Below are positions 1,686 to 33,224 of a stretch of DNA of 45,355 nucleotides, in pieces (the stretch's first letter is position 1; every line of letters begins with the position of its first letter). Source of the stretch: a virus (Duplodnaviria > Heunggongvirae > Uroviricota > Caudoviricetes); the IMG/VR virus record IMGVR_UViG_3300028888_000058, positions 103,060 through 148,414 of that record. One strand, 5' to 3'. Under the pieces are notes generated by a model that was given only the letters and a program-made list of their open reading frames with translations, was not told the DNA's origin and did no database searches. Made by a program: the position numbers and the translations under genes.

Positions 1686-1897
1686 AAGATATTATTGAAT
1701 CTTTAAAACAAACTGATTATTCAGAATGCCATGATGTTAAATGCATTAAAGAACTTACAATAGAACGCAAGACAGGAACTAAGACATTTAAAGTTGATAC
1801 AGAATATAAAGCATCAAAAATTAATGATAATTGGTGGCTTATAGATCAAATAGGTATATCTTCTAAAGAATTCAAAAAATATTTTAAAGATATTTAA
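1682..1897 (+). CDS. hypothetical protein with shortened tag variant
   Basis: 71 aa; MKDIIE (Glu at 6); ATGA overlap with the upstream gene. Confidence 0.65.
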   Translation: MKDIIESLKQTDYSECHDVKCIKELTIERKTGTKTFKVDTEYKASKINDNWWLIDQIGISSKEFKKYFKDI

Positions 1898-2274
1898 TGA
1901 AAAATATTAATAATTTCATATCTGAAAAATTAATTATAAATAAAAATATTAAAATGAGCAGTACTGGTGAAGATTATTGGTCATGTAAAGATATTTCTAA
2001 ATCTGATATGATTAAGTTCACAAAGAAAGCATTGAAAGAATCTAAAGTAAAACCAGAAAGAATTTTAGATGAATTATCAGGATATGAAGATATTGATGAT
2101 TTACAACAAGCATATGAAAATGAAGAATTACCTTCTTATTTAACATTTGAACAAAAATTTTTAGATATGATTGCTAATGATGATAAATATAAGTGTAAAG
2201 AAGTAAACATAGCTCAAGCTTTATGGATTCACGCATATGATATTATAAACGAAATTATAAATAAAGGTGAATAA
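1897..2274 (+). CDS. double-tagged hypothetical protein
   Basis: 125 aa; MKNINNFISE-KLIINKNIK; TAATG overlap. Confidence 0.8.
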   Translation: MKNINNFISEKLIINKNIKMSSTGEDYWSCKDISKSDMIKFTKKALKESKVKPERILDELSGYEDIDDLQQAYENEELPSYLTFEQKFLDMIANDDKYKCKEVNIAQALWIHAYDIINEIINKGE

Positions 2275-2280
2275 TTAAAT

Positions 2281-2649
2281 ATGAAATCAATAGTTGATTC
2301 GATTAATGAAAAACTAATCATCAATAAGAACACTAAAATATCATCTAAAAGAGATTATATAGAGCCAGAAGATATAGAAGATATGGAAACTCCAGGTAAA
2401 GATTACTTTGGAGATGATGTTGTTATTGTAGGAAAACCATTTACAACAAAACCAAAAGATCAAAATTATTTAGAAACACTTAGATATATACGAAAATCAA
2501 AATATGTAGTATATAACGATTTAGCAGATATAGATAATTTAAATGATTATGATGATGATACATATTTCGTATATGCCGCTCATAAAGGTGATAAAGAATT
2601 AAACTGTTATACATACGGCCCTGAAGGTGTTTACGGGGTAGATGAATAA
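2281..2649 (+). CDS. double-tagged hypothetical protein, paralog of 2676..3035
   Basis: MKSIVDSINE-KLIINKNTK; shares YIEPE..ETPGKD..G....I.GKPF and the C-terminal YG...VY..D with the next gene. Confidence 0.8.
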   Translation: MKSIVDSINEKLIINKNTKISSKRDYIEPEDIEDMETPGKDYFGDDVVIVGKPFTTKPKDQNYLETLRYIRKSKYVVYNDLADIDNLNDYDDDTYFVYAAHKGDKELNCYTYGPEGVYGVDE

Positions 2650-2675
2650 TCAAATATAAATAATAGTTATATAAA

Positions 2676-3035
2676 ATGAAAGATATAAATAATTTCATAT
2701 TTGAAAAACTTATTATAAATAAAAATACTAAGTTTAAGAAAAATTATATAGAACCTGAAAATATCAAAGGACCAGAAACTCCAGGTAAAGATTCTAATGG
2801 TGAAGATATAACTATTATAGGTAAACCATTTAAATCTATAAAAGATAAAAGTTATACAGAAAACATTAGGATAATTAAAGATAAAGGTGATATCATTAAA
2901 AAAGATTTATATGAATTTGATGAAGACGAGCTTGGAGATTTTGAATGGTTTGTATATATAAAACGTAAAACATCTGGGCATACTGTTTTTTGCTGTGGAT
3001 ATGGATTAAACAGTGTTTATGCTATAGATAAATAA
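2676..3035 (+). CDS. double-tagged hypothetical protein, paralog of 2281..2649
   Basis: MKDINNFIFE-KLIINKNTK; same core motifs. Confidence 0.8.
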   Translation: MKDINNFIFEKLIINKNTKFKKNYIEPENIKGPETPGKDSNGEDITIIGKPFKSIKDKSYTENIRIIKDKGDIIKKDLYEFDEDELGDFEWFVYIKRKTSGHTVFCCGYGLNSVYAIDK

Positions 3036-3064
3036 GTGATTACAATTAAATATAAGATAATATA

Positions 3065-3604
3065 ATGAAAGATATTAGAAATTATATATTAGAACATAAT
3101 ATAGTTGAAGCTGTTGAAGCTTATAGATTAAATGAAGTTGAAGCTACATATTTAGTTCAACCTGAAGAAATTATACTTCAAGCACCAGAAACATATCAAG
3201 AATCTGATATTCAACAATATATGGATGATATGTGGCTTAATTCTTTACCATCAGGACAAGATTATTCAGAACAATTCTTTGGAAAAAATAATGACAGTAT
3301 ATCAGATGTACATTTTGAATATGATACATTTGAGCATATTGATATAGAACCAAAAGAATTCATCGAATGGGATTCAAAATTTGATCTTAAGAAAACTAAT
3401 GATGATGTTAAATTAGATTACTTTAAAATTAAAAATCTTAAGTATATAATTAATTTTGATAGATTTGATATGGTTGATGTAACTGATGATAATGTTGAGG
3501 AAAAACTTAAAGATATATTCCGTGCAGCAGAATCTAATGATGCAAATAAAGATTATCCTATTGAAATAAAATTTGATGAAGACTCATTAGAGTATAGAAA
3601 ATAA
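3065..3604 (+). CDS. tagged acidic hypothetical protein
   Basis: 179 aa; MKDIRNYILE; very D/E-rich. Confidence 0.8.
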   Translation: MKDIRNYILEHNIVEAVEAYRLNEVEATYLVQPEEIILQAPETYQESDIQQYMDDMWLNSLPSGQDYSEQFFGKNNDSISDVHFEYDTFEHIDIEPKEFIEWDSKFDLKKTNDDVKLDYFKIKNLKYIINFDRFDMVDVTDDNVEEKLKDIFRAAESNDANKDYPIEIKFDEDSLEYRK

Positions 3605-3605
3605 T

Positions 3606-4553
3606 ATGAAAGATTTAAATAATTACATATTAGAAAATACTAATAAATTATATGAAAATGAATTATTAGAAAGATTATGCAATCATATTTCTATAATAGT
3701 ATATACAAAATATGGTAGTGGTATAATCCCAAATATTCAATTAAAAGAATCATTAGGAAATTTTAAAAATGCTCATAAAGTATTAAATCATATAATTACT
3801 GAACTTAAATCTAATTTTAATTCACAAGAAATTAATTGTGATAATTATGATGTATTTTTTAAGAAAATTAAAATAGATATAATAAATAAAGATTTAATTA
3901 ATGCAAGTTATTTAAATATTGATAATGATGTTTTAGAAATTGAAATATTATGTTTAGATAAAGAAACATTTATTGATTATATTGATGATTATATAGAATT
4001 AATATTGCATGAAATGTTACATGGATATGAAGATTATTGTAGAAAATCATCAAATAAAAAAGGCATATTTGATCTTTGGAATATAAATTATAAAAAATCT
4101 TATATTAATATAAATAATATTAATGATATTAAAAGATATTTAAGTAGATGTAAATATTTCTTTAATTCACAAGAACGTAATGCATATTTTTCATCTTTAG
4201 AATTATGTATTAAAGATATTATAAAAAAATATCATATTAGTGCAGATAATTTAGATTACGAAAAATTTAAAAGAGCAATTAAAGATCATCATATTTGGAA
4301 AATATATTTTGATTTAGGAACATTTATTATAGGATTAGAAAATATAAATAATGATAATAAAAAATATATAGAAAAACAATATAATTCATTATTTGAAAGT
4401 AATAAATCATTTAATGAAATAAAAAAAGAATTAAATATATCATGGAAAAAATTTGATAAAAAATTTAATCAATTAGTTCCAAAGATTCTTTGTAATAATA
4501 TTCAAATTAAAGAATTTAAAAATTATTCATTTAATATTGATAAATTAATTTAA
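3606..4553 (+). CDS. tagged protein with HExxH zinc-metallopeptidase-like motif
   Basis: 315 aa; MKDLNNYILE; LILHEMLHGYE with a downstream QERNAY glutamate; function inferred from motif only. Confidence 0.55.
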   Translation: MKDLNNYILENTNKLYENELLERLCNHISIIVYTKYGSGIIPNIQLKESLGNFKNAHKVLNHIITELKSNFNSQEINCDNYDVFFKKIKIDIINKDLINASYLNIDNDVLEIEILCLDKETFIDYIDDYIELILHEMLHGYEDYCRKSSNKKGIFDLWNINYKKSYININNINDIKRYLSRCKYFFNSQERNAYFSSLELCIKDIIKKYHISADNLDYEKFKRAIKDHHIWKIYFDLGTFIIGLENINNDNKKYIEKQYNSLFESNKSFNEIKKELNISWKKFDKKFNQLVPKILCNNIQIKEFKNYSFNIDKLI

Positions 4554-4579
4554 ATAAAAAAATATATATTTTAATAATT

Positions 4580-4939
4580 ATGAAAGACATTAAGCAATTT
4601 ATCTTAGAAGGTAAGAAACATGTAGATACTGCAACATTAGCAGATTTTTATCAATGGTATTGTGGATGCGAAGCTCCAGATGGTAAAGCAGATAAATCAA
4701 TAATTAATCAAGAAGACTGTGAAGGACTTTTAGATAATGGTTGGTTTGATAATTTTGATGATTCAGATCCAGAAAAAGGATGTAAAGAAATTGCAGAATT
4801 CTTTAAAAAGAACTGGGATAAACAAATTAAAGTAACATCAACAGATATTGGTAATTGCTGGTCAATATCATTCAAATTAGATGGTAAAGAATTTGAATGT
4901 GATGCTCTTAATTACTTTGGTGGAGAAATTGAATATTAA
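4580..4939 (+). CDS. tagged hypothetical protein
   Basis: 119 aa; MKDIKQFILE. Confidence 0.8.
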   Translation: MKDIKQFILEGKKHVDTATLADFYQWYCGCEAPDGKADKSIINQEDCEGLLDNGWFDNFDDSDPEKGCKEIAEFFKKNWDKQIKVTSTDIGNCWSISFKLDGKEFECDALNYFGGEIEY

Positions 4940-4944
4940 TAATT

Positions 4945-5229
4945 ATGAAAGACATTAAAGAAAAACTATTAGAAACCCAGATTAATGAAGATAAATTTGC
5001 ATATTCATGGCAAAATGCTTTCATACATGCTATTATATCATTAAATGAAGTTGATGGAGAAGTACCATGCAGAGAAATAGTCAATAAGTGGTTTGATGAT
5101 GAACAATCACTTCATGAACTATATACATTTCTATATCGTATAGATTGTAAGCCTGAAAAGAAAGATGTAAAATCAATAGTTGAAGCAATTGTAGATAAAG
5201 CATCTAAATTAAAAACATATAAAATATAA
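4945..5229 (+). CDS. tagged hypothetical protein
   Basis: 94 aa; MKDIKEKLLE-TQINE. Confidence 0.75.
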   Translation: MKDIKEKLLETQINEDKFAYSWQNAFIHAIISLNEVDGEVPCREIVNKWFDDEQSLHELYTFLYRIDCKPEKKDVKSIVEAIVDKASKLKTYKI

Positions 5230-5245
5230 AAAATTATATATTTAG

Positions 5246-6160
5246 ATGAAATCTATAAATAATTACATAGATAATATAAACTTATCTAGTTTCTTATTTG
5301 AATCTCGTGAAGTTTCAACCGCTTCTAATAAGCAACGTCGTAAGGAGCTTGAGAAGTGGTTGAAACATAAGAAGTATGATGATTATGTAGAAACTTTAAA
5401 TAAGATGCTTGAAGATCCAAAATCAGCTGCATTATTAGAAGATGGTTTTGGAGGTGAACTTGGAGATACAAAATTAACATTTTCAGTTAAAGAAATTCCA
5501 GTATCTCAATTAATGCCAACACAAGCAAACATAGATTTAGATAAGTCTTTAAAATATGCATTGACTGATAAAGAATCAATGTTAAAGACTTTTAATGATC
5601 CTATAGAAATCAATAAGCCTATTGTTACGTTTAGAGAGAATTACGTTATAGACGGTCATCATACATGGTTACAAGCTATAGCATTAAATCCAAAAGGAAA
5701 GATATTATCATTTAATTATGATGGTGATATTTCTCCAATTCAGATGCTTAAGGCAGTACAAGGAACTATAGCAGCAGTTAAAGCTGATAAGAATAATAAT
5801 AATGGTAAACTTCCATCAAATAATGTAAAGGGTCCTAATTTCTTTGATGAATCATTTGACAAAAAGAAAATTAAGAAATATATAGAAGATAATCTTGATG
5901 AAGACTTAATAGATCAATATGTAGAAAAAATAAAAGAATGCTATGACTATGATACTACTGTTGATTATATAGTTGAACGTCTATTAGATATTAAGTCAAA
6001 TAATTATCCATTTGATACTGCACCAGATAGAAAGAATATGCCACAAGTATTCAAAGGTGGTACAGATAAAGATGATAAAAGTTCTGCATTGCCTGATAAA
6101 GAAGGTTCTGCAATGAATAAACTTAAAGATGACAAATTTATGAAATCTGTTACAAAATAA
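5246..6160 (+). CDS. ParB/Srx N-terminal-like domain protein with extended tag
   Basis: IPVSQLMPTQ...PIVTFRENYVIDGHHTW matches the ParB/sulfiredoxin PTQ...IDGHH signature; N-term MKSINNYIDNINLSSFLFE. Confidence 0.65.
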   Translation: MKSINNYIDNINLSSFLFESREVSTASNKQRRKELEKWLKHKKYDDYVETLNKMLEDPKSAALLEDGFGGELGDTKLTFSVKEIPVSQLMPTQANIDLDKSLKYALTDKESMLKTFNDPIEINKPIVTFRENYVIDGHHTWLQAIALNPKGKILSFNYDGDISPIQMLKAVQGTIAAVKADKNNNNGKLPSNNVKGPNFFDESFDKKKIKKYIEDNLDEDLIDQYVEKIKECYDYDTTVDYIVERLLDIKSNNYPFDTAPDRKNMPQVFKGGTDKDDKSSALPDKEGSAMNKLKDDKFMKSVTK

Positions 6161-6176
6161 ATTAATAAATAGCAAA

Positions 6177-6395
6177 ATGAAAGACATTATAAGTAAAATA
6201 AATGAAAACAAAGGATATACAGAATATTCTTTAAAAGAAATATTTGATACTTATTTTAATAAACCAAATGTTTCAGATGGTAATGAAAATATCTTATATG
6301 ATTTAATAATGTATGTAGCATCAAAAAAACCTACCAGTGCAACTAAAGTAGTTATTGATCAAGCAATTGAAATAGTTGATAAAATGGGTTGGTAA
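6177..6395 (+). CDS. tagged hypothetical protein
   Basis: 72 aa; MKDIISKINE. Confidence 0.75.
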   Translation: MKDIISKINENKGYTEYSLKEIFDTYFNKPNVSDGNENILYDLIMYVASKKPTSATKVVIDQAIEIVDKMGW

Positions 6396-6524
6396 ATATT
6401 TAAAATTATATAAAAGAATATAATATTATTAAAGAATGCGTTGAATGTGGTGTTTATAGGTATGCTATCAAACGTCAATTATTAAAAATAGAAGATTATA
6501 TATCAAACATATATAAAATAAATA

Positions 6525-6827
6525 ATGAAAGATATAGTAAATTTTATTAATGAAGCAATAGATAAAGTTTTAAGTGGATTCTGTATTATAGATATGTCAG
6601 ATGAATCATTAGTATCAAATTGGGGCACTGGTGATCTTGTGAAATGCATACATGAAATTCAAAAACTTAAGAAAGAAAACCAAGATAAAGAATATTGGAT
6701 AGTTGCTCAATATAATGAAATATATGATTTAGAAGATACTGGCAATTATAGAGTCTTATCTTCAAGAGAATATAATGAAAATGAAACAGATTTTGGCATT
6801 AATCCAAAATTCAAAGAATACTTATAA
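6525..6827 (+). CDS. tagged hypothetical protein
   Basis: 100 aa; MKDIVNFINE; last gene of cluster 1. Confidence 0.8.
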   Translation: MKDIVNFINEAIDKVLSGFCIIDMSDESLVSNWGTGDLVKCIHEIQKLKKENQDKEYWIVAQYNEIYDLEDTGNYRVLSSREYNENETDFGINPKFKEYL

Positions 6828-6850
6828 TTAATTTACAATTTTAATAATAT

Positions 6851-6891
6851 TAGACAATATTTAGAACTTTTTCTAAGTATTGTCTATTTTT
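6851..6891 (+). terminator. intrinsic terminator closing tagged cluster 1
   Basis: TAGACAATA-TTTAGAA-CTTT-TTCTAAG-TATTGTCTA hairpin followed by TTTTT. Confidence 0.65.
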
Positions 6892-6918
6892 GATATAAAT
6901 ATATAGACTTAAATTTAA

Positions 6919-7362
6919 ATGGATAATAATCAATGGCATCAGGCAAAAGTTCCGTTCTTTTTAGAAGTTGAATATTATGATGAATATAATCCTGATACTG
7001 AAAGTAAAATAATGAAATCTTTATTAAGAAATGAAGATATTCTTCCAGGATTACGGGTTAATAAAATGTTTGCTAATTGTATCGATAAAGATGTATTAAT
7101 AGCAGATGAACTTCAAAATGATTTAAAACATTTACAAGAAGAATTTGAAAAGTTTAAGAATAAGTATGCTAATTTTGCTGATGATAGAACAAAAGACAAT
7201 TGCATGAATAAATTAGGTATGGAACCTAAAGATTTTTCAGATATGGAAAAATATCATGCAGCAGAAATTAAGAAAGCAACAGAAAATAATAAAACACCAA
7301 TTATAGATAGTAATATAGGAAGATATAAATCATATGACGACCCATCAAATTTTCCGCAATGA
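6919..7362 (+). CDS. hypothetical protein
   Basis: 147 aa ORF at the start of an operon; no recognised motif. Confidence 0.7.
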   Translation: MDNNQWHQAKVPFFLEVEYYDEYNPDTESKIMKSLLRNEDILPGLRVNKMFANCIDKDVLIADELQNDLKHLQEEFEKFKNKYANFADDRTKDNCMNKLGMEPKDFSDMEKYHAAEIKKATENNKTPIIDSNIGRYKSYDDPSNFPQ

Positions 7363-7616
7363 TACCAGGATTTGTTTCAATATATATAGATAAAGAAAAT
7401 TATAAGCATTTATATTTTTATCCAGGAATAGATGAAAATAATGAATATATTTATCATAACATAGATTGGTCAGATTACTCATTTAAAATTGATGAAACCC
7501 GTAATGAAGATGGATCAATAGATTATAAGTTTTATGATAAATCAATTGTTCGTATAACTTGTAAATTAATAGATAATAAAGATAAACAACGCATAGAAGT
7601 TCTTAATTTTAAATAG
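7359..7616 (+). CDS. hypothetical protein
   Basis: 85 aa; ATGA overlap; ends TAG followed by TAA. Confidence 0.65.
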   Translation: MIPGFVSIYIDKENYKHLYFYPGIDENNEYIYHNIDWSDYSFKIDETRNEDGSIDYKFYDKSIVRITCKLIDNKDKQRIEVLNFK

Positions 7617-7624
7617 TAAAACTT

Positions 7625-7876
7625 ATGAAAGGTAATTGTATAGATAAGTTTATTGAAAAACGATTAAATAAAAGATTAATTGAGTTATTAAAAGTTCGTC
7701 TTAATATTAGACATCGTAAAATAATACGTGAAGAAACAAATGATTACTTTAATACAGGATGTTACGAACAAGATTTTTCGGATATTATAAAATTAAGAAA
7801 TATTGCAAAAGAACTTGAATTAAATTGTAATAAGTTTTTAGAACGTATATCAGAGCAGTATAGTAAATTAAATTGA
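7625..7876 (+). CDS. hypothetical protein
   Basis: 83 aa, tightly packed. Confidence 0.65.
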   Translation: MKGNCIDKFIEKRLNKRLIELLKVRLNIRHRKIIREETNDYFNTGCYEQDFSDIIKLRNIAKELELNCNKFLERISEQYSKLN

Positions 7877-7891
7877 TATGGTAAACAATAT

Positions 7892-8200
7892 ATGAAATAT
7901 AAAATAATCAAAAAGCATTCAAAGACATTAAAAGTTACACACCCAGGTAAATTTCCAGATAGTGAAAAATATATACCTGAAAAAACTTCAATTGAAAGAA
8001 GCGAATGGTATGAAGTAAAACGTAAAGGTCGTATATTTGGATTTTGGCATAAGGTAGGACATGAATGTGGTTATGAAGGAGAAAGAATCCAACATACAAC
8101 TCATACTTTAGATGAAATGAAAAATTACATCAAAGATTGGCATGAAGTTCATTATGGAGATAAATGTAAATGTGAAATAATCGAAAAATTTAAATTATGA
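7892..8200 (+). CDS. hypothetical protein
   Basis: 102 aa. Confidence 0.7.
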   Translation: MKYKIIKKHSKTLKVTHPGKFPDSEKYIPEKTSIERSEWYEVKRKGRIFGFWHKVGHECGYEGERIQHTTHTLDEMKNYIKDWHEVHYGDKCKCEIIEKFKL

Positions 8201-8595
8201 ACAAACGTAAGAATAGACAGGAACAAATAAGAAATGCTGCAGAATATACTTCAGCAAAAAATAAGGAGTCTTTTGAAGCTGGTGCAAAATGGGCAGATTT
8301 TAATCCTTATTGGAAAGAAGATATTCCAAAGAAAGAAAAGAATCAATACGGATTGCCTAAATTATATCTTTGTCAGATACTTACATTAGATATGACTTTT
8401 GGATATAGATATTCATATAGAGTAGGATTTATTAATTCAGAAGGAAAGTGGAATATTGAAAATACATTAACTCATGTAACAAGATATTTAGATATATTCT
8501 GTGATGAATCAGATTCACAATTAATTAAGAAGGATATTCCAATGTTTGAAGAGAAAGAAAATAAAGATGAAAAAGAACTTAAAGAAGCAGCATAA
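8197..8595 (+). CDS. hypothetical protein
   Basis: 132 aa; ATGA overlap. Confidence 0.7.
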   Translation: MNKRKNRQEQIRNAAEYTSAKNKESFEAGAKWADFNPYWKEDIPKKEKNQYGLPKLYLCQILTLDMTFGYRYSYRVGFINSEGKWNIENTLTHVTRYLDIFCDESDSQLIKKDIPMFEEKENKDEKELKEAA

Positions 8596-8597
8596 TT

Positions 8598-9038
8598 ATG
8601 GATTTTTGGTCAAACTTAAAGAAGGGAGATAACTTATATTTATTGATACCTATATATCCTATATGTGGTCAAGTATGTGAATATAAATATCAGGAAACAG
8701 AAGTTATCAATATGAAAGAATATAAGTTCATATATAGATTGACTTTTAAATATACTGATGAAAATGGAAAACGTATTAAAGTTAATCTTCCAATCAATAA
8801 GAATAAATGTAGTTTTTCATATTTGCCTGTATCAAAAGAAACAGAATGGGCTCGTGAATTGAGAATTAAATATGGAGATTTCATTATATCACCAATAGAT
8901 GATAAATTATATCTTTGCTCATTAGTTAATTTAATGATAGATAATAAAATTAATGAATATAAATCTATTATTGAAACTTATAAGAATGAAATATCTGATT
9001 TAGAAAACATTAGAAGAAATCATAAAATTTATGAGTAA
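8598..9038 (+). CDS. hypothetical protein (FxDLKxGD-start family)
   Basis: N-term FWSNLKKGDNLYL; beta-rich middle; C-terminal coiled-coil-like helix. Confidence 0.7.
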   Translation: MDFWSNLKKGDNLYLLIPIYPICGQVCEYKYQETEVINMKEYKFIYRLTFKYTDENGKRIKVNLPINKNKCSFSYLPVSKETEWARELRIKYGDFIISPIDDKLYLCSLVNLMIDNKINEYKSIIETYKNEISDLENIRRNHKIYE

Positions 9039-9916: not shown

Positions 9917-9933
9917 ATAAAAATATTAATATT

Positions 9934-17990: not shown

Positions 17991-18041
17991 AAAATCATTT
18001 TTTTTTTATTTTTATATAAATACAAAAAAATAAGTAAAGTT

Positions 18042-24753: not shown

Positions 24754-26292
24754 ATGGGAAAAATAACAAAAACTGATATATTATTTTCATCTAATTTAGG
24801 TAGTATTCATTATGAAGGATTAGATAGTATAGAAGTATTTAAGATAACTGCTTTAGAAAATTTAACATTATCATTTTCAAATAATCTTGAATATAATAAT
24901 GGTACTAATTCATATTGGAGTTTTTATGAAGCAAATACAGAAATAGAATTAAGCTCAGGTAATAGCATAGTATTCAAAGGAAGTTTGATACCATTTATGA
25001 ATAATGGTATAGGTACATTTACTGTATCTGGAGATTTTGAAGTATCTGGCAGGCTTCTTGCATTAATTAATCATAACTATATGAGACCTTATTCATTCAA
25101 GGATTTATTTAAGAATTGTACTACATTAATAGATGCAAGTAATTTGATAATGCCTAAACACACTGAAGTTGGCTGTTATGAAGGGATGTTCTATGGATGT
25201 TCTTCATTAACAGATTCCCCAATATTAAGAGCAGAAACTTTATCTGAAGACTGCTATAAAGATATGTTCTATGGATGTACTTCATTAAATCATATCATAT
25301 GTTATAATGTTTCAGATATATCAGAATATGTTAATCAAAACTGGATATCTGGTGTTGCTGGTTCTGGTACATTTGAACTCAATTATTTAGGAACATGGAA
25401 TAATACTAATAAAGCATCTCATATTCCATCTGGGTGGATTATTAATGATGAATATGGATATCCATGGGAAAATGAATATCTTCAATTTGATGTATTAACT
25501 GATGGCACAATATTATGGAAAGGTACAGGTAATAATGAAATATATAGTGTATTAACTATATCATACAGTAAAGATAATGGAACTACATGGACAGATATCA
25601 CAGCTACATCTGAAGGTACTGAAATTAATGTACTAACTGGAGATAAAGTATTAATAAAAGGTAATAATTCTCGTTATGCATGGAATAATACAAAATATTC
25701 TGCTTTTACTGGTGGTACTGCAACATATAATGCTAAAGGTAACATAATGAGTCTTATTTATGGAGATAATTTTATTGGACAAACTACATTAACGGAAGAA
25801 CATGCATTATCTCAAGTATTTAACGGATCAAATATTGTTTCTGCAGAATATTTAATATTACCAGCAACAACATTAACTACAGATTGTTATCGAGCTACAT
25901 TTGCACATAGTCATTTATTAACAAAATCTCCTAAAATATTACCTGCTACAACTTTATCAACAGAATGTTATTATTATATGTTTGATGACTGTGTTTCAAT
26001 GACAACACATCCTGAATTGCCAGCAGAAACATTAGTATATCATTGTTATCACGGTTTATTTCATGGTTGTGTTTCTCTTAATTATATTACATGTTTAGTG
26101 CAAAATATAATAAATGATAGTTTATTTGCTTTTCTTTGGGATAATACATTGGGAAGTATTAATGTAGTGTTTCCAACTGGTGTATTTATTAAACATGTTA
26201 ATGCAACATGGCCTAAAGCTGGTGGTAATAGTGCTACTGGCATACCTTCAACTTGGCTCATTAAAAATTATAAAGAATATTATGATATATAA
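24754..26292 (+). CDS. shorter paralog of 21136..24714 (BspA/LRR-type)
   Basis: Shares the N-terminal module (ITA.E.LTL.FSN.LEY...GIGTFTVSG...FK.LF.NCTTL...ASHIP..W) and one SYSKDNGTTWTD...GNIMSL module with about 3 repeats. Confidence 0.75.
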   Translation: MGKITKTDILFSSNLGSIHYEGLDSIEVFKITALENLTLSFSNNLEYNNGTNSYWSFYEANTEIELSSGNSIVFKGSLIPFMNNGIGTFTVSGDFEVSGRLLALINHNYMRPYSFKDLFKNCTTLIDASNLIMPKHTEVGCYEGMFYGCSSLTDSPILRAETLSEDCYKDMFYGCTSLNHIICYNVSDISEYVNQNWISGVAGSGTFELNYLGTWNNTNKASHIPSGWIINDEYGYPWENEYLQFDVLTDGTILWKGTGNNEIYSVLTISYSKDNGTTWTDITATSEGTEINVLTGDKVLIKGNNSRYAWNNTKYSAFTGGTATYNAKGNIMSLIYGDNFIGQTTLTEEHALSQVFNGSNIVSAEYLILPATTLTTDCYRATFAHSHLLTKSPKILPATTLSTECYYYMFDDCVSMTTHPELPAETLVYHCYHGLFHGCVSLNYITCLVQNIINDSLFAFLWDNTLGSINVVFPTGVFIKHVNATWPKAGGNSATGIPSTWLIKNYKEYYDI

Positions 26293-26337
26293 AAATATAA
26301 ATAAATGAATATATAATAAATAGATTAATTATAATAA

Positions 26338-28425
26338 ATGAAAACAATAGTTATAAATAAATCAGGTGTTCCTGCTAGTCCATTAGTCGCTGCAGAATCA
26401 ATTTATAATGTTTCACCATTATTTGCATCTTCTAAACCAGTAGGTCCATGGGTTTATGCAAAAAAGAACACTACTGATGTTAATGAAAATATAGAATTAC
26501 CATATTCTGTTAATAGAATTGATGGACATTCTGGAAACTATGCAACAGGTTATTTTACATTTACATCAACAATTACTATTCATAAGTTACAACCAACTTA
26601 TCTTTGGTTTGACCATGCAGATCATTCTGCAGAAGTATATATTGGAGAAACATTGGTAACTAAACACTGGGGTGGATATAATGCATTCTTTGTAGATATA
26701 ACTGATTATATTCAAGTTGGCACAAATAATTTAACTGTTAAAATCAAAAATAATGAAGGTAATAATCTTCCACCCGCAGCTGGTGACTTCAATCGTAATG
26801 CAACATTAGGTAAAGTTAAATTATTGACTAGCCCAGTATTGCCATCGCCTGAATATGGATATGATGGATTCCATATTACATCTACAGTAACTGATGCACA
26901 AGCAATTATGACAGTTAAAACAACAATTCCAACATATGCTGATGTTGTATTAAAAGTCAATGATGAAGAATTTAGTTATGTAGAAAGAAAATTTGGTAAA
27001 GGTGATATTACATTTACAGTTACTATAGATAACCCTCATCTTTGGAATGGTACATTAGATCCACACCTTTATGATGTGACTTTAGAATTATATTATAATG
27101 AAGAACTTAATCTTCAGTTGAAACGTCCTTATGGATTAAGATACTTTGATTATGTTTGGGATGATGCAACTATTGAAGGATATGATTCAGAACATCCATA
27201 TACAGGTTTCTTATTAAATGGCAGCCCATATTTGTTAAGAGGTGTTTGTTCTCATCATGATTTAGCAAATAAAGCTAATGCATTGACTGTAGAAGACATC
27301 AATAATGATTTTGATATCATAACTGAACTAGGTGCTAATTTCTTACGTCTTGCTCATTACCCTCATCCAAAACAAGTTTATGACTATTGTGATAGATTAG
27401 GTATTATTGTACAGACTGAAGCACAATGGGTAAACTCTTCAACATTAACAATGCCAGAAGCATATTGGACTCATCTAGGTGAAGAAATTGAAGATATGGT
27501 TAATCAACATTATAATCACCCATGTATATTATTCTGGGGTGTTGGTAATGAAATTAATACATCAGTTACAAATTCAACTGAAGGTAAAGATTTTGTTAAA
27601 TCAAAAATTGAAGGATATAGAACACAAATTAGAACATTAATGCCAGGCGCTTGGGTAGGCTATACTGTATCACATGGAACAGATAACGGATTAGGAGTAT
27701 TTAATAATCCTACTGTTGATTGGGTTGGAAACAATATATATGTAGGTTGGTACATAGATCAAAATTCAAACAATCCAACAAACCGTCTTAATACAAGAAT
27801 AAATAATAATGGTACTACACCAACTGCATATTCAGAATATGGATGCGGCGGTTCTTCAACATGTCACTCAACAAGTTATATGTCAACTACGACACGTGGA
27901 AATAACCCAAGACATGATATTGAATATATGATGTGGTTACACGAAGGACATATTGCAGCTATTAAGAATTTCCCACAATTGTTATTTACTTCTCAATGGC
28001 AATTATTTGATATTGCTGTTTCTAATAGACAAGAAGGTTATAAAGTATGTTTGGATGATGAAACTGTTACTGATAATAATGATTTGAAATTCTTAAATAA
28101 CAAAGGATTGGTTGAAAGAGATCATAAAACAAAGAAAGATACATTCTATATTTATAAAGCATGGTGGAATCCAACTCCATTTGTACATATCTGTCAAAAG
28201 AATTTTACAAAGACTTCAGATAGAGTTATCAAATGCTATACAAATTCAACAGAGCAATTCTCATTATATGTAAATCCAACTGGTGAAAATGATGTTCCTG
28301 TAGAAACACTTACACCAACTAATAATATTTTAGAATTTACTGCTGCAACATTTAGTTCAGGAGATGTAATCGTAGTAACTAATGGAACAGTTGAAGATAC
28401 TTTTGTTATAGATCCAACTGAATAA
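26338..28425 (+). CDS. glycoside hydrolase family 2 (beta-galactosidase/beta-glucuronidase-like)
   Basis: H.GGY..F..DIT, LNG.PY.LRGVCSHHD, GANFLRLAHYPH, HYNHPCILFWGVGNE (acid/base Glu), SEYG (nucleophile Glu), NNKGLV..D.KTKKD.FY.YKAWWN; no signal peptide. Confidence 0.92.
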   Translation: MKTIVINKSGVPASPLVAAESIYNVSPLFASSKPVGPWVYAKKNTTDVNENIELPYSVNRIDGHSGNYATGYFTFTSTITIHKLQPTYLWFDHADHSAEVYIGETLVTKHWGGYNAFFVDITDYIQVGTNNLTVKIKNNEGNNLPPAAGDFNRNATLGKVKLLTSPVLPSPEYGYDGFHITSTVTDAQAIMTVKTTIPTYADVVLKVNDEEFSYVERKFGKGDITFTVTIDNPHLWNGTLDPHLYDVTLELYYNEELNLQLKRPYGLRYFDYVWDDATIEGYDSEHPYTGFLLNGSPYLLRGVCSHHDLANKANALTVEDINNDFDIITELGANFLRLAHYPHPKQVYDYCDRLGIIVQTEAQWVNSSTLTMPEAYWTHLGEEIEDMVNQHYNHPCILFWGVGNEINTSVTNSTEGKDFVKSKIEGYRTQIRTLMPGAWVGYTVSHGTDNGLGVFNNPTVDWVGNNIYVGWYIDQNSNNPTNRLNTRINNNGTTPTAYSEYGCGGSSTCHSTSYMSTTTRGNNPRHDIEYMMWLHEGHIAAIKNFPQLLFTSQWQLFDIAVSNRQEGYKVCLDDETVTDNNDLKFLNNKGLVERDHKTKKDTFYIYKAWWNPTPFVHICQKNFTKTSDRVIKCYTNSTEQFSLYVNPTGENDVPVETLTPTNNILEFTAATFSSGDVIVVTNGTVEDTFVIDPTE

Positions 28426-28438
28426 AATAAAATCAAAT

Positions 28439-28470
28439 AAAAAAGGAACTCTTAATTGAGTTCCTTTTTT
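28439..28470. terminator. bidirectional intrinsic terminator between convergent operons
   Basis: AAAAAAGGAACTC-TTAATT-GAGTTCCTTTTTT. Confidence 0.85.
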
Positions 28471-28955
28471 GTTTCATACATATATAAATAAATTATATCT
28501 ATTTCTCCATCATTAAATTTTCTTTTAAATTCTTTATTAAATGATTCTTTACGTTTAAAATATTTATCTATCTCACATCTAAATTTCCATTTTGTTATCC
28601 ATCTTTTACTTTTTGAATATGCTAATTTAATTCTATCTAATATACTTAAATCAGGTCTATTCATTAAATAAAACATATAACAGTTCCAATATCTTTTAAT
28701 TAATTTCCAATATCCTATTTCGCCAACTAAATAAAATCGTATTCCTTTTTTCTTATAATCATCATAATTATATTTAGGCTTATCACAAATTAATTCTAAT
28801 ATTTGTAAATCTCCATGATATTCTCTATTATAACTTTCAAAAGCTTCATAAGATCCCCACATTTCAATTTTCTTTCTGTTCTTATTATTGAACATTTTCT
28901 TTATGTGTGGTAATAAAGAAATGATTGATTTTGTTCCTTCAATATATTCTACCAT
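28452..28955 (-). CDS. hypothetical protein
   Basis: 167 aa, basic/aromatic; last gene of the minus-strand block. Confidence 0.7.
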   Translation of the reverse strand: MVEYIEGTKSIISLLPHIKKMFNNKNRKKIEMWGSYEAFESYNREYHGDLQILELICDKPKYNYDDYKKKGIRFYLVGEIGYWKLIKRYWNCYMFYLMNRPDLSILDRIKLAYSKSKRWITKWKFRCEIDKYFKRKESFNKEFKRKFNDGEIDIIYLYMYETKKELN

Positions 28956-28959
28956 AATT

Positions 28960-29358
28960 TTATTCTATCCAAATCCATTTTGTTTCTGATATTGTAGTTA
29001 GTCTCATATTATCAAATCCTTGTGCAATATAGTCTCGCATAATCATATGAACTTCATCAGAATTTTTTGCAAAAACTGGTAATGCATATTTGATTGTCTT
29101 AATTGTTCCTTCTTCAGTAGGAACATCTTCTGCAACCTTGACTGCAAATATTTTTGTTCCTTCTTTATATTCATTTGCAGCAGGCTTAAAATTCTTCATC
29201 ATACATACATCTTCTATTTCAGCATCTGTGCCAACAATCTGTATTATTTTGTAGCCTGCATCTGCAAAATGTAACGCATCAGTAAAATAAGTTTCTATGA
29301 CACGTTTTTCTTTATCATTTATGGATATGTTTCTATTTAATTTAATCTTAAAATACAT
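28960..29358 (-). CDS. DUF4494-like protein (Bacteroidota family)
   Basis: YFKIK..K.V.E.Y..DAL.F..A and F..KV....EG..K....V.A...M....ISET pattern recalls DUF4494. Confidence 0.5.
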   Translation of the reverse strand: MYFKIKLNRNISINDKEKRVIETYFTDALHFADAGYKIIQIVGTDAEIEDVCMMKNFKPAANEYKEGTKIFAVKVAEDVPTEEGTIKTIKYALPVFAKNSDEVHMIMRDYIAQGFDNMRLTTISETKWIWIE

Positions 29359-29387
29359 AACTTACCTCTTTATATATTTATATTTAA

Positions 29388-29855
29388 CTATTCATTAAAT
29401 TCGACTACTTTTGATCCACCAAAAGGTCCATACATACCTAATAGTTTTTCTGAAGCACTTGCATCAAAACGTAAACTATTTTTTTTGAATATTGTTTCTT
29501 TATCTTCTGCATCACTAATAAAACTGTTTCTGTTCATAACAGATAGATTATTCTTCTTAAAGTCTTTAGCTATCTTCTTATCTTTAAACTTATGACCTGC
29601 AAGAATAAAATATTTAAACTTATTAGAATCCCATTTATTCTTTGATAAAAAATTTTCAAGTTTTTCTTTTAATTCCTTTCCTTCTTCATCAGTTATATAA
29701 GGTTCCTTCTGAAGTCTTCCTTTATCAATTTCATATAGTTTATCAATTTCAAAATGATCCCAGATACTTTTAAGTTCTGGAGACATTGAATTATTAATTT
29801 TGATATCCTTGTTAATAATTAGTTTTTCTAATATAAATGATTTGATTTTTTTCAT
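29388..29855 (-). CDS. double-tagged hypothetical protein
   Basis: MKKIKSFILE-KLIINKDIK; 155 aa. Confidence 0.8.
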   Translation of the reverse strand: MKKIKSFILEKLIINKDIKINNSMSPELKSIWDHFEIDKLYEIDKGRLQKEPYITDEEGKELKEKLENFLSKNKWDSNKFKYFILAGHKFKDKKIAKDFKKNNLSVMNRNSFISDAEDKETIFKKNSLRFDASASEKLLGMYGPFGGSKVVEFNE

Positions 29856-29866
29856 TATATTATTTA

Positions 29867-30262
29867 TTATATTTTTTCAACTTTACATAATATCATATTT
29901 TGATCATTATATGTAGATATAATATTTGATTCTTTATATCTTATACCACTTTTAGATTTTAACAAATAACCATCCTTAGCATATTTGACCCAATAATAAT
30001 CTAAAGATGCAGTATAGTTTCCATTATCTAATGGTTTTAACCAATGAAACCTATCACCTTCATCAGAATCTCTTTTAATCATTACTATAGCTTCTTCTGG
30101 AGATTCAGCATGATCTACTATTTGTAGTTTGTCTCCTATCATATAATTATATTCTTTACCATCAATTTCTATAATTATATTATCATCATCGATATGTTTA
30201 TTAATTTTAGTATTCTTATTGATTACAAATTTTTCTAATAATATATGTTTTAATGATTTCAT
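29867..30262 (-). CDS. double-tagged hypothetical protein
   Basis: MKSLKHILLE-KFVINKNTK; 131 aa. Confidence 0.8.
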   Translation of the reverse strand: MKSLKHILLEKFVINKNTKINKHIDDDNIIIEIDGKEYNYMIGDKLQIVDHAESPEEAIVMIKRDSDEGDRFHWLKPLDNGNYTASLDYYWVKYAKDGYLLKSKSGIRYKESNIISTYNDQNMILCKVEKI

Positions 30263-30277
30263 ATTATGTTAAATTTT

Positions 30278-30757
30278 TTATTTTTTATACCATTTAGGTG
30301 GATTATCTTCTAATTCTCCACCATGAAACATATATTTCATGTTTTTTACATTACTTACATCCCATTTTGATATATCTCCATTAAAATGTGAATAAGCAAA
30401 CATTTGAAACATATTTTCAACATTTCTTACATCCCAATTAGATACGTCTCCATTTTCTCCAGTAAATTTTGAGCCTAAAAACATTTCTCTCATATTGGTA
30501 ACATTACTAACATCCCATTCAGATATATCACCATCAAAACTTTTATTTACATCATTATCACTAAATACTGCAGACATATCAGTTATTTCTGAAGTATCTA
30601 TATCATTAAGATCTGCAGTATAACCACGTTTATTTATTAATCTATAAACAGTTTGTATTAGTTCTTTATTAGTCTTTGGATGATAATGATACTTATCTAT
30701 TTTAGTGTTCTTATTGATAATAAGTTTTTCTATTATAATATCTTTAAGGTTTTTCAT
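30278..30757 (-). CDS. double-tagged DUF285/BspA-like repeat protein (short)
   Basis: MKNLKDIIIE-KLIINKNTK; DISEWDVSNVTNMREMF-type repeats; ends NPPKWYK. Confidence 0.8.
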   Translation of the reverse strand: MKNLKDIIIEKLIINKNTKIDKYHYHPKTNKELIQTVYRLINKRGYTADLNDIDTSEITDMSAVFSDNDVNKSFDGDISEWDVSNVTNMREMFLGSKFTGENGDVSNWDVRNVENMFQMFAYSHFNGDISKWDVSNVKNMKYMFHGGELEDNPPKWYKK

Positions 30758-31092
30758 AATACAAAATCTTTTATTTGTTCGTATAATTCTTCTTTATAGT
30801 TTTTGACATAATCTATTAAATCTTTTTTATCAACATTCATAAATTCTGCCATGTCTTCCCATAAGAACAATCTTCTGAAATATTCTGCGATATCTTTATG
30901 AAAGAATTTATCAACTATCTGTAACCGTGTATCATATTCATTGCCATCAAAAGTACCACTTGCTTGAAAATACATACATAACTCATCTATTATTTTATTC
31001 TGTTCATCATCAGATAAATTAGTCTGTTTATTGATTTTTGTGTTCTTATTAATGATTAGTTTTTCTATTATGATATCTTTTATGTCTTTCAT
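30754..31092 (-). CDS. double-tagged hypothetical protein (start revised to ATG 31092)
   Basis: MKDIKDIIIE-KLIINKNTK; the upstream TTG start in the ORF track lies inside a duplicated gene relic. Confidence 0.8.
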   Translation of the reverse strand: MKDIKDIIIEKLIINKNTKINKQTNLSDDEQNKIIDELCMYFQASGTFDGNEYDTRLQIVDKFFHKDIAEYFRRLFLWEDMAEFMNVDKKDLIDYVKNYKEELYEQIKDFVL

Positions 31093-31204
31093 TTTATACC
31101 AAGATATTTTTTGTAAATTTTGCAAACGTTTAACTTTCGATTTATCAGCAATTGATTTTGGATTCCAAATATTTATATGATTGTGCTTTATTATGCCTTC
31201 ATAT
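31090..31204 (-). pseudogene. duplicated 3' fragment of gene 31900..32370
   Basis: About 90% identical by hand alignment to 31901-32014; encodes YEGIIK.NHINIWNPKSIADKSKVKRLQNLQK with a +1 A frameshift. Confidence 0.85.
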
Positions 31205-31903
31205 GTTTTTATACCATTTTGGTGGATTTTTTTCTAAAGGACATCCACTAAATATATCGTCCATATGTTCAACATTACTAACATCCCATTTTGATATATC
31301 ATTTTTAAAATTAGAATTTTCAAACATTTTTGTCATATTTTCAACTTTGCTGACATTCCAATTAGATATATCACCATTAAATATAGAATTACTAAACATA
31401 TTCCACATGCTTGTTACATTACTAACGTCCCATTTTGATATGTCACCAGTAAAAGATGATCCTGAAAACATATTTGCCATAAATTTAACTTTGCTAACAT
31501 TCCATTTTGATATATCACCATTAAATCTAGAATCATGAAATATATATCCCATATTATTTACATGGCTTACATCCCACTTTGATATATCTCCATTTTCTCC
31601 TGTAAAATTAGAATTCATAAATGTCATATACATTGTTTTAACATGACTTACATCCCACATTGATATATCTCCATTAAATTTAGAATTATAAAACAATTCA
31701 TTTAATGATGTTACATTAGATACATCTATATCATTAAGGTCTGCATCATTACCACGTTCTTCAATAAGTTTTTTAATTGTTTTCTTTAATTCATTTAAAT
31801 TTTTAGGACGATAATTATATTTACGGAATTTAGCATTTTTATTAATAATTAGTTTTTCATTTATTTCTAAATTTTCTTTTAGTATATCTTTTAAGTTCTT
31901 CAT
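31199..31903 (-). CDS. double-tagged DUF285/BspA-like repeat protein (long)
   Basis: MKNLKDILKE-NLEINE-KLIINKNAK; about 6 FNGDISxWDVSxVxxMxxxF repeats; ends NPPKWYK. Confidence 0.82.
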   Translation of the reverse strand: MKNLKDILKENLEINEKLIINKNAKFRKYNYRPKNLNELKKTIKKLIEERGNDADLNDIDVSNVTSLNELFYNSKFNGDISMWDVSHVKTMYMTFMNSNFTGENGDISKWDVSHVNNMGYIFHDSRFNGDISKWNVSKVKFMANMFSGSSFTGDISKWDVSNVTSMWNMFSNSIFNGDISNWNVSKVENMTKMFENSNFKNDISKWDVSNVEHMDDIFSGCPLEKNPPKWYKNI

Positions 31904-32370
31904 TTTATATTAAGATATTTTTGTAAATTTTGTAAACGTTTAACTTTTGATTTATCAGCAATTGATCTTGGATTCCATATATTTATATGATCAATCTTTA
32001 TTATGCCTTCATATATTTTTAATAAGAATTTTATAAATTCCTTTGGTTCATTATCAAGTAGTTCAGCAAATTTTTCATATCTTTCTGGTGGTTCTAATCT
32101 TATGAAATCTTTATAGTCATCTACAGTAAATTTTTTCTTTTTTTGACGGTTCTCCCTAAGATGATCCAATATGACTAATTGTATATCACGAATTTTATTT
32201 GAATTGACTCCATATTTATCTTTGAATGGTTCCTTTTCAGCTTTTGTATATGCTCCAGAAACTTCATCATAATCATTATGAAGTTCTTCATCAGTAAATT
32301 CTTTTTCTTTTATATTTAAATGATGATTAATAATTAGTTTTTCTGATATGATGTCTTTTAGGTTCTTCAT
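31900..32370 (-). CDS. double-tagged hypothetical protein
   Basis: MKNLKDIISE-KLIINHHLNIK; 156 aa. Confidence 0.8.
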   Translation of the reverse strand: MKNLKDIISEKLIINHHLNIKEKEFTDEELHNDYDEVSGAYTKAEKEPFKDKYGVNSNKIRDIQLVILDHLRENRQKKKKFTVDDYKDFIRLEPPERYEKFAELLDNEPKEFIKFLLKIYEGIIKIDHINIWNPRSIADKSKVKRLQNLQKYLNIK

Positions 32371-32379
32371 AGCAATTTA

Positions 32380-32841
32380 TTATTTGTTTATAAAAAATAT
32401 AATTCCAATATTTTTAATATCATATGTTAATAAATTAAGTTCATTATTTGAATATATTCCTGTACGATCATATTTGTCTTTATATAATTCATCTTTATAT
32501 ATTTCATCACCATTATCTTTAATGAACTTTATAAATTCTGTTTTATCTAATATAATTTCTATACTATTATTTTCAAAATCTTTACGAAGATCTTTTTCTA
32601 AATAATCATTATCAGGATCAATTAATCCGTATTTTTCTAATACATCTATTGTACTTAATATAATAAGATGTTCAACATTTTCTTCTTTAACCCAATTTGC
32701 TATTGCTTTAACTTCAGCATCTTCAGCATCTTCAGGTTCAGAATATATAAACCTTAAAATTGTATCAACAAAAGTATTTCTAATTTTTGTATTTTTGTTA
32801 ATAACTAATTTCTCTAATATAGAAGTTTTTAAGTCTTTCAT
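32380..32841 (-). CDS. double-tagged hypothetical protein
   Basis: MKDLKTSILE-KLVINKNTK; 153 aa. Confidence 0.8.
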   Translation of the reverse strand: MKDLKTSILEKLVINKNTKIRNTFVDTILRFIYSEPEDAEDAEVKAIANWVKEENVEHLIILSTIDVLEKYGLIDPDNDYLEKDLRKDFENNSIEIILDKTEFIKFIKDNGDEIYKDELYKDKYDRTGIYSNNELNLLTYDIKNIGIIFFINK

Positions 32842-33224
32842 ATCTTAACAATTTTTAATTTATTATCATCCCATTTATAACCTGCTTTCTTTAATGCTTC
32901 CATGAATTCGTCGCATTTTTCTTCTGAAGCTAATTTATATCTTTCTAGTCTTTCTGAAATAGTACCAACACCAGTATCTACACCAACATCTAATTTTTTT
33001 CTTTCATCACAAATATATGTTGCATGATATACTATAGCATCATCAGAAGCATTATTTACATGAAAATCTTTGTTTAATCCTTTATATATAAAAAGTAAAT
33101 TTTCATTCATCTCAACTATATCTCCGTTTTGAGCAGTCTCAATAGTCCAATCATCTAAATTTCTTATTTTTATATTTTTATTGATGATTAGCTTTTCGTT
33201 TATAAATTCTATTATTTGTTTCAT
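32838..33224 (-). CDS. double-tagged hypothetical protein
   Basis: MKQIIEFINE-KLIINKNIK; 128 aa. Confidence 0.8.
   Translation of the reverse strand: MKQIIEFINEKLIINKNIKIRNLDDWTIETAQNGDIVEMNENLLFIYKGLNKDFHVNNASDDAIVYHATYICDERKKLDVGVDTGVGTISERLERYKLASEEKCDEFMEALKKAGYKWDDNKLKIVKI

Follow-up and report, generated by a model that had tools for sequence, protein, structure and literature searches.

A conserved peptide behind the predicted cleavage site of T4-like leaders on unrelated small proteins of AT-rich megaphages

Why would a short peptide be kept nearly constant immediately behind a predicted cleavage site in small phage proteins that have little else in common? This question is raised by a 45,355-nucleotide stretch of Caudoviricetes DNA with 27% GC (positions 103,060 to 148,414 of the IMG/VR virus record IMGVR_UViG_3300028888_000058; hereafter, the window), in which 22-24 small genes open with the pattern M-K-x-[IL]-x-x-[FIY]-I-x-E. 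This first-layer tag is a leader of about 10 residues that ends in (L/I)-x-E. In 11 of these genes, the leader is extended by a second layer, E-K-[LF]-[IV]-I-N-K-[ND]-x-K, at residues 10-19 (Table 1). The interpretation that we favor, with moderate confidence given the comparative sequence analysis described here, is that the nine residues following the glutamate serve as a constant prime side in a portable cleavage junction and, in addition, provide a spacer and a new N-terminus for probable capsid cargo. This is a real, widespread and, as it seems, previously undescribed variant of the T4 capsid-cargo leader, and the T4-type megaphages of the gut and rumen that encode it probably load these proteins into the prohead; that they are cleaved and packaged, and what the motif does, we infer from sequence.

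A preliminary description of the window had placed the motif in these same 11 genes (named here by their lower window coordinate), and it is present in each of them. The stricter pattern given there, E|K-[LF]-[IV]-I-N-K-N-[TI]-K, fits eight genes exactly (1897, 2281, 2676, 29867, 30278, 30754, 32380 and 32838); the other three are variants, with K-D for K-N in gene 29388, a six-residue insert (KENLEIN) ahead of EKLIINKNAK in gene 31199, and KLIINHHLN in gene 31900. The latter form is also the first unit of a DUF285 leader in another sampled locus, L005. When the motif was back-translated into a 30-nt pattern, six matches were found in the window, compared with 0.00 in 100 shuffled sequences.

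Two relatives were central to the comparison. The closest one is an IMG/VR contig of 435,272 bp (hereafter, the 435-kb relative), with stretches syntenic to the window that are 87-89% identical to it. A few kilobases upstream of the position that matches the start of the window, this contig encodes a Peptidase_S77 (gp21-type) protease (L130:4595-6322; 41.1 bits, with a cut-off of 27) and a Gp23-type major capsid protein (PF07068; L130:6426-8204; 102 bits). The protease is fused to a long acidic tail of about nine 12-residue repeats (VVEEFAPEVQNW-like), which may be where the basic leaders dock. The second relative, contig CADBGE010000001.1 (G001:C1; L198-L217) of 400,076 bp, was picked out by a scan of species genomes, with 38 pattern matches at no more than one mismatch. 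Despite being filed under a bacterial metagenome-assembled genome (MAG), "uncultured Erysipelotrichaceae MAG" (RUG13941), it is a megaphage genome, with 29% GC and 466 open reading frames (ORFs), 58 of which (12%) carry the first-layer tag; it encodes a Peptidase_S77 domain at 158807-159148 (42.9 bits).

The motif has a fixed position relative to hydrophobic-x-Glu (phi-x-E). All 186 motif instances in the DNA examined are preceded by Glu, most of this DNA having been retrieved with a pattern that contains the E, and in 128 of the 186, the P3 residue is I, V or L. In G001:C1, the junction [ILVFM]-x-E-[KR]-[LF]-[IVL]-[IVF] occurs 88 times in 54 ORFs, as against 1.45 +/- 1.3 in shuffled sequences, and takes three forms: simple long leaders, leaders built of tandem units, and internal junctions in two- or three-module ORFs. 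The tandem units consist of 10-12 residues (for example, KLVIFPSQV[DN]E and [KR]LIINQRF[DN]E) and end in hydrophobic-x-Glu followed by K-L-[IV]-I; the last unit of such leaders is KL[IV]INKN[YF]K. Seven G001:C1 junctions lie deep inside ORFs, between two cargo modules, where the decapeptide is absent and V-[DN]-E is followed by KLVINKNFK ahead of the second cargo. This polyprotein form was also found in P0019, P0020, P0021, P0026, P0060, P0091, L111 and L042. Because the motif follows phi-x-E also after tandem units and inside polyproteins, it belongs, as judged by these contexts, to the predicted cut site rather than to the N-terminal decapeptide. If cut there, the mature proteins would indeed start with K-L-[IV]-I-N-K, as had been predicted for the window genes.

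Individual leaders and ORFs illustrate how far these arrangements go. Up to three or more units can stand in tandem (KLVIFPSQVDE, KLIINQRFDE, SKALHQNVNIAE), and, if such units are cut, many identical small peptides would be released. In L042, a minus-strand ORF of 490 aa (oriented start 6140) encodes a KxDG ligase-like protein that runs in frame into a complete internal leader (KSFGEYFINE, then KLIVNKDTK) and on into another module, with the junction linking the enzyme to a cargo.

Table 1. Positions of the motif copies and of other features discussed in the text (window coordinates unless another contig or locus is named)
Feature	Position	Strand	Remark
EKLIINKNIK, codons 10-19 of gene 1897-2274 (125 aa)	1924..1953	+	ortholog in 435-kb relative: EKLVIDKDIK
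EKLIINKNTK in gene 2281-2649 (122 aa)	2308..2337	+	paralog of 2676
EKLIINKNTK in gene 2676-3035 (119 aa)	2703..2732	+	
EKLIINKDIK (N-to-D variant) in gene 29388-29855 (155 aa)	29799..29828	-	gene absent from the syntenic cluster of the relative
EKFVINKNTK in gene 29867-30262 (131 aa)	30206..30235	-	absent from relative L002
EKLIINKNTK in DUF285 gene 30278-30757 (159 aa)	30701..30730	-	
EKLIINKNTK in gene 30754-31092 (112 aa)	31036..31065	-	true start is the internal ATG at 31092
EKLIINKNAK in DUF285 gene 31199-31903 (234 aa)	31829..31858	-	follows a second phi-x-E unit (MKNLKDILKE-NLEINE-)
EKLIINHHLN (degenerate variant) in gene 31900-32370 (156 aa)	32314..32343	-	orthologs: KLIINKNIK or KLIINKNLN
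EKLVINKNTK in gene 32380-32841 (153 aa)	32785..32814	-	cargo is a leader-bounded insertion relative to L002
EKLIINKNIK in gene 32838-33224 (128 aa)	33168..33197	-	6 nt downstream of recA
151-nt direct repeat, copy 2	31061..31211	-	copy 1 at 31872-32021; 88% identity; one copy in the relative
ClpX with zinc-finger N-domain	38065..39246	+	zf-C4_ClpX 37.8 bits, AAA_2 105 bits
Tandem-unit leaders	G001:C1 138070-138714, 385717-386592, 373781-374467; L020, L050, L118		
TATAAATA copies	2256-2263, 2655-2662, 6894-6901, 18015-18022, 29375-29382(-), 26296-26303		

The motif is not a peculiarity of the window. In the part of IMG/VR that was searched, the pattern is rare and limited to a few AT-rich contigs; in a metagenome scan, the matching contigs have 21-31% GC, and 56 of the 97 among the matches listed have a Met exactly nine residues before the Glu. 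The examined loci contain 181 distinct ORFs with the first-layer tag, 85 of which, from about 30 cargo families, carry the extension. The leader class is stable within a cargo family, with 25 families long-only, 58 short-only and 5 mixed, the latter mostly reflecting leader variants missed by the search expression. A profile built from 71 N-termini of thirty residues matched 452 clusters (50% identity) at E <= 0.001 among 1.84 billion representatives; among the 150 clusters listed, the match begins at residue 1 in nearly all, and several contain two or three matches. The same tag is attached to different cargos in related genomes, and the substitutions observed within the motif stay within I/V, N/D and T/I/Y/F.

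Other searches were less informative. A homology search with residues 1-40 returned mainly orthologs of one cargo, and a locus search with the 315-aa gene 3606-4553 as the query found no relative. Among 50,697 phage records searched for cultured relatives, nothing similar was found either by DNA or by a 25-residue peptide. The leader was not seen in the examined regions around DUF285 matches in cultured phages and in "Listeria phage" records, the matches in the latter being bacterial surface proteins with signal peptides. In the collection of papers searched, no publication links capsid-targeting sequences with megaphages, and no proteomic study of these uncultivated phages was found.

Is it the peptide or the DNA that is conserved? 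The preliminary description favored conservation at the DNA level, noting that 31 of 33 nucleotides are identical between 2308-2340(+) and 30698-30730(-). The count itself is correct, but an identity of at least 31/33 is unexceptional for a pair of sequences encoding this peptide under the codon usage of the genome (P = 0.136). The mean pairwise nucleotide identity of the 11 motifs (0.781) equals that expected from the amino-acid constraint and codon usage (0.783 +/- 0.014), and the first 60 nt of leader pairs within a genome have a median identity of only 72%, with the longest exact run at a median of 8 nt and a maximum of 21 nt. These values rule out DNA conservation beyond what the amino-acid constraint and the AT bias produce, an outcome that the preliminary description had itself named as refuting this part of its proposal. 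Because the paralogs 2281 and 2676, with cargos only 40.6% identical, keep 9 of 9 motif residues through six synonymous differences, selection acts on the peptide, and it does so across the roughly 30 cargo families of the sampled loci and the 452 clusters overall.

Codon choice in the leader is, nevertheless, strongly atypical. The rare codons CTA, ATC, AAG and AAC are enriched (log-likelihood -94.0 vs -74.4 +/- 6.0; P = 0.0008), also relative to the tagged genes' own usage (P < 0.0002), whereas codons 21-30 are normal (P = 0.33). The preferences are for CTN, [AG]TC and ATC, and the rare choices at codons 12-16 are shared by the window, L001-L010 and G001:C1. At position 13 in G001:C1, GTC makes up 62% of the Val codons (7% genome-wide) and ATC 86% of the Ile codons (8% genome-wide); Leu12 is encoded by CTN in 80% of the cases, and C-ending codons are preferred at positions 13 and 14 in this second lineage too. 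In relatives, Lys16 is AAG in 13 of 15 copies. Three possible causes of this bias, or of the conservation of the leader, were examined and rejected. AT-rich context does not account for it, as ATC encodes only 7-9% of Ile where AT-type contexts occur elsewhere; the folding scores give no sign of RNA structure in the leader (mean z = -0.1 for 69 long leaders); and avoidance of TATAAATA, the T4-type late-promoter word, is not apparent from the 3 copies observed, compared to 7.4 expected from codon usage and 1.0 from marginals. Our guess is that the bias could stem from selection for accurate or fast decoding; tRNAs with G34 match C-ending codons exactly.

The position-specific codon choice in two lineages speaks for a nucleotide element within the first 60 nt, be it an RNA structure, a translation enhancer or a sequence shaped by avoidance of internal promoters. 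The 5' regions of the long-leader genes, moreover, fold weakly (-4.8 kcal/mol), which favors initiation. We consider such an element very unlikely, given the lack of a structure signal and of support for TATAAATA avoidance, the agreement of the overall identity with the amino-acid null, the many synonymous variants and, finally, the occurrence of the motif deep inside ORFs.

Plain paralogy of the 11 proteins can be excluded as the explanation of their shared N-terminus. In an all-against-all BLASTP comparison of the cargos, only two pairs are related, 2281/2676 (40.6% identity) and 30278/31199 (51.5%), and DUF285, detected in the latter two proteins only, is the sole Pfam family above the curated cut-off among the 11. 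Two different folds are predicted by AlphaFold2: the 112-residue family of 30754 is modeled as all-helical with low confidence (predicted local distance difference test score, pLDDT, of 56), and 30278 as a mainly non-helical DUF285 repeat domain (mean pLDDT 92). Apart from the two paralogous pairs, the tag is therefore followed by unrelated cargo, as the preliminary description had maintained. In the model of 30278, the leader forms a detached helix (residues 4-22, pLDDT 57-72), and the confident fold (pLDDT >= 90) starts at about residue 21-30, with values above 95 in the DUF285 domain; the models agree in showing the leader with the motif as an appendage and no part of the cargo fold. Across the tagged genes of the window and the sampled loci, the predicted cargos are acidic, with a median isoelectric point (pI) of about 5.1 in both leader classes. 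The possibility that the motif is a basic stub offsetting acidic cargo was rejected, as the cargos of long and short leaders are the same in pI, charge and length.

The models are compatible with another role for the nine residues, namely, that of a long-form capsid-targeting sequence (CTS), in which they would extend the targeting helix, bind the scaffold core more strongly and set copy number or loading order, with the cut falling in the middle of the helix. In both models, the E|K site lies within a single helix (residues 4-14 in one, 4-22 in the other), and L12-I14 prolong the hydrophobic stripe of the decapeptide; furthermore, the motif has a charge of +3, the long acidic repeat tail fused to the protease, with its 12-residue units, is an example of a possible partner, and tandem KL[IV]I units could add avidity. 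However, the pLDDT of the leader is low, and the internal junctions of polyproteins keep the motif intact without the decapeptide, so that the motif is independent of the N-terminal helix. We find a long-form CTS unlikely.

Comparison of the window with the 435-kb relative shows how the tagged genes are gained and lost. In cluster 2, that is, the eight adjacent long-leader genes at 29388-33224, there are three events of difference, with breakpoints placed no finer than about 60 nt since the leaders resemble each other. First, the cargo of the 153-residue protein (32372-32782) is inserted between two leaders, with homology extending 59 nt into the leader. Second, the 234-residue DUF285 gene is inserted along with a 151-nt direct repeat, which flanks it and consists of about 118 nt from the 3' end of the 156-aa gene and about 32 nt of leader. 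Third, the window has an additional pair of genes (29397-30263) following the 159-residue gene. The differences in cluster 1 are greater still, and there, too, the breaks fall at gene starts. As a by-effect of the second event, gene 30754-31092 is preceded by a defunct piece of the 156-aa gene, derived from its 3' end and read as MQNLQKISWYK.

Leaders and cargos also have separate histories. The identities of leader and cargo are discordant in both directions, at 0.49 vs 0.93 in gene 3065 and 0.47 vs 0.91 in gene 6525, and, in a DUF285 paralog, 0.91 for the leader vs 0.73 for the cargo; in L120, the cargo of gene 29867 is 95% identical at the nucleotide level, and its leader is different (84%). 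The KENLEIN leader is joined to a DUF285 cargo in the window and to a 112-residue cargo in L107 and P0011, and in two phages it stands behind the same upstream gene (40 of 45 nt upstream identical). Because this leader, with the same upstream gene, carries two unrelated cargos, the crossover lay, on this comparison, at or just after the second layer. Taken together, these cases support leader-bounded shuffling. Of the recombination handle proposed in the preliminary description, the exchange of cassettes at the leaders is thus borne out by indels, discordant identities and one leader with two cargos, and the idea that recombination is the purpose of the conserved DNA is not. Leaders within a genome are poor homology substrates, and their identity is too low for maintenance of this DNA as a recombination site; we regard the shuffling as real and as a by-product.

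Such mobility invites the suggestion that the nine residues have no function of their own: they would have hitch-hiked on a single leader variant as it was multiplied by duplication, gene conversion and recombination between leaders, and this continual copying would be what preserves them. The long-leader genes stand side by side in groups of 3 and 8 in the window and in blocks in G001:C1, indels and leader swaps break at leaders, and the motif evolves at ordinary substitution rates among orthologs; DUF285, the commonest cargo and the sole long-leader gene in the regions sampled from L001 and L004, suggests a source. Against this stand the retention of the amino acids while synonymous sites turn over, the persistence of the motif across lineages with 21-31% GC and 452 clusters, the confinement of substitutions to I/V, N/D and T/I/Y/F, and the poor quality of 72% identical leaders with 8-nt exact runs as a conversion substrate. 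Hitch-hiking alone is, in our view, quite improbable.

The portable cleavage junction that we favor would work as follows. The leader would consist of one or more units of 6-12 residues, each ending in hydrophobic-x-Glu, a site of the gp21/S77 type, with a T4-CTS-like decapeptide as the first unit. The last Glu would be followed by K-L-[IV]-I, the same four residues that open many of the repeated units, then by the polar, basic stretch N-K-N-x-K and, finally, by the folded cargo. Once the protease had removed the leader units, KL[IV]INKNxK would form the new N-terminus of every cargo, be it the first one or one inside a polyprotein. In this scheme, the motif would present a uniform and accessible prime side to the protease, would act as a spacer ahead of any cargo fold, and might also be a common handle on the trimmed protein. 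The module would move between cargos via recombination in or next to the leader DNA, and the similarity of this DNA would be a by-product of the constraint on the peptide.

Several observations weigh against the portable junction. In short-leader genes, P1' is occupied by S, K, N, G or A, and the residues beyond it show no conservation; because these leaders manage without the motif, it cannot be a general requirement for cleavage. The candidate sites in the major capsid protein (AIHE/IHE|SQLG) lack K-L-[IV]-I, and in G001:C1, no ORF longer than 350 aa has the junction except for one polyprotein; a prime-side motif common to the essential head proteins was accordingly rejected, with the capsid protein and the protease-scaffold both lacking it. 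The S77 protease and the Gp23 capsid gene were found in relatives only and were not seen on the window itself. Conservation up to P9' exceeds what proteases usually need for their subsites. Motif and cargo diverge at about equal rates in close orthologs (for example, KLIINKNIK vs KLVIDKDIK), and the internal copies could be relics of gene fusions produced by recombination inside leaders.

Since the nine conserved residues exceed subsite needs, there is room for an exposed N-terminus that is read later. Such a signal, legible only after cleavage, could be recognized by the phage ClpXP, acting on injected proteins as a timer or unfoldase, or by the ejection path, for ordering or docking. Every cargo start retains the motif, also in the second modules of polyproteins, which need no targeting of their own, and, after duplication, the cargo-proximal copy is intact and the distal copy decays (L005, P0012/13). 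Within the window, the gene for ClpX, complete with the substrate-binding zinc finger, lies at a distance of 5 kb, and both ClpX and ClpP (the match to the latter with one internal TAA) are encoded by the 400-kb relative. ClpX is known to read N-terminal degrons (PMC12723719), and the likeness to N-terminal or cleavage-exposed degrons consists in a short, unstructured terminal peptide that possibly becomes accessible only after a cut. ClpX degron classes, though, are loose, and an N/K-rich peptide from a genome with 27% GC fits them easily by chance; short-leader cargos bear no such signal, and the cargos of the two leader classes are alike in charge and length. The stretch I-I-N-K-N-T-K presumably resembles the ClpX N-motif-3 pattern of Flynn et al. 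2003, a lead rather than a test. We consider a purely post-cleavage signal possible but unlikely. A combination of the two functions in a two-step address code, with the leader meaning "load into the head" and the exposed KL[IV]INKNxK being read in the next host by ClpXP or the ejection machinery, also strikes us as conceivable albeit unlikely; if so, tandem units and polyproteins would tune dose and stoichiometry.

Among known systems, the closest counterpart of the portable junction is the set of T4 internal proteins, in which the leader directs packaging and binds the scaffold core, and gp21 cuts after (I/L)-x-E (PMC3012670, PMC5694885). The T4 propeptides leave the head after cutting (PMC5694885, PMC3012670), and the T4 internal proteins show no homology beyond the N-terminal leader (PMC12373910). 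As in IPI, IPII, IPIII and Alt of T4, small proteins that are otherwise unrelated begin with a leader of some 10 residues whose end is (I/L)-x-E, the loci are plastic, and a gp21-type protease and gp23-type capsid protein occur in the same lineage, as found in the relatives. Unlike in T4, however, the similarity continues for nine residues past the predicted cut site on hundreds of cargos, there are tandem cleavable-type units and polyprotein cargos, and the set is far larger, reaching 12% of the ORFs in one genome. Also, the T4 internal proteins are basic, whereas the predicted cargos described here are acidic.

Several cuts within one propeptide have been described in T4, phiKZ and SPN3US, with the fragments thought to clear the capsid easily, and diverged paralogs in giant phages can have identical N-termini (PMC5694885). 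The leaders resemble the propeptides of phiKZ, 201phi2-1 and SPN3US in having a three-residue motif with the cut after Glu and several sites per propeptide (PMC5694885). The phiKZ-type systems differ in their S80 proteases, A/S/G-x-E sites and another P3 preference, and neither a conserved prime-side motif nor a standard junction between cargos has been described for them. Another parallel is provided by the PeSL cassettes and IP-locus elements of T4-type phages, where a short conserved repeat lies between variable small genes and marks the breaks of the insertions, deletions and replacements by which close relatives differ (Arbiol et al. 2010, PMC2839356; Repoila et al. 1994 cited there). PeSLs, however, are intergenic and combine a promoter with a stem-loop, whereas the repeat here is coding, with 4-nt gene overlaps and no RNA structure, and the exchanges are in frame and also yield fusions. 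Viral polyprotein junctions and encapsulin cargo-loading peptides embody the same concept of a short, portable sequence; the proteases and shells are unrelated, so this is an analogy only.

If the portable junction is real, the rule phi-x-E followed by KL[IV]INKNxK would list the probable capsid cargo of uncultivated huge phages, including modules hidden in polyproteins; so far, the list amounts to 452 protein clusters and, in a 400-kb genome, to about one ORF in eight. It also raises the question of whether a T4-type head protease reads the prime side or the trimmed N-terminus is itself a signal. More generally, a coding tag can act as a seam for swapping, duplicating and fusing small anti-host genes. 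The T4 CTS is already used to package foreign proteins in capsids, and a portable load-and-release junction could serve the same end.

The remaining observations concern the gene content and putative transcription signals of the window. Besides ClpX, it encodes T4-type topoisomerase II subunits, a sigma-70-like protein, a bacterial-type RecA, MnmA, a macro-domain protein, a family-2 glycosidase and large BspA-type repeat proteins. Cluster 2 begins 6 nt past the stop codon of recA, which lies on the same strand (window 33224-33231), and four of its junctions are 4-nt overlaps; judging from this layout, its eight long-leader genes probably share a transcript with recA, and their translation is probably coupled.

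The word TATAAATA is enriched in the window, with 37 copies vs 23.5 +/- 5.0 expected. It is found 13-34 nt upstream of several starts, including those of the tagged genes 2281, 2676 and 18042, and is, by its sequence and placement, a candidate late promoter; the second-layer DNA of genes 1897 and 2676 contains two more copies. In cluster 1 (window 640-6530), a recurring AATATATAT(G)-like word is located about 15-25 nt upstream of the starts at 673, 936, 1335, 1682, 4580 and 6525 and may be a promoter for the small genes of this cluster.

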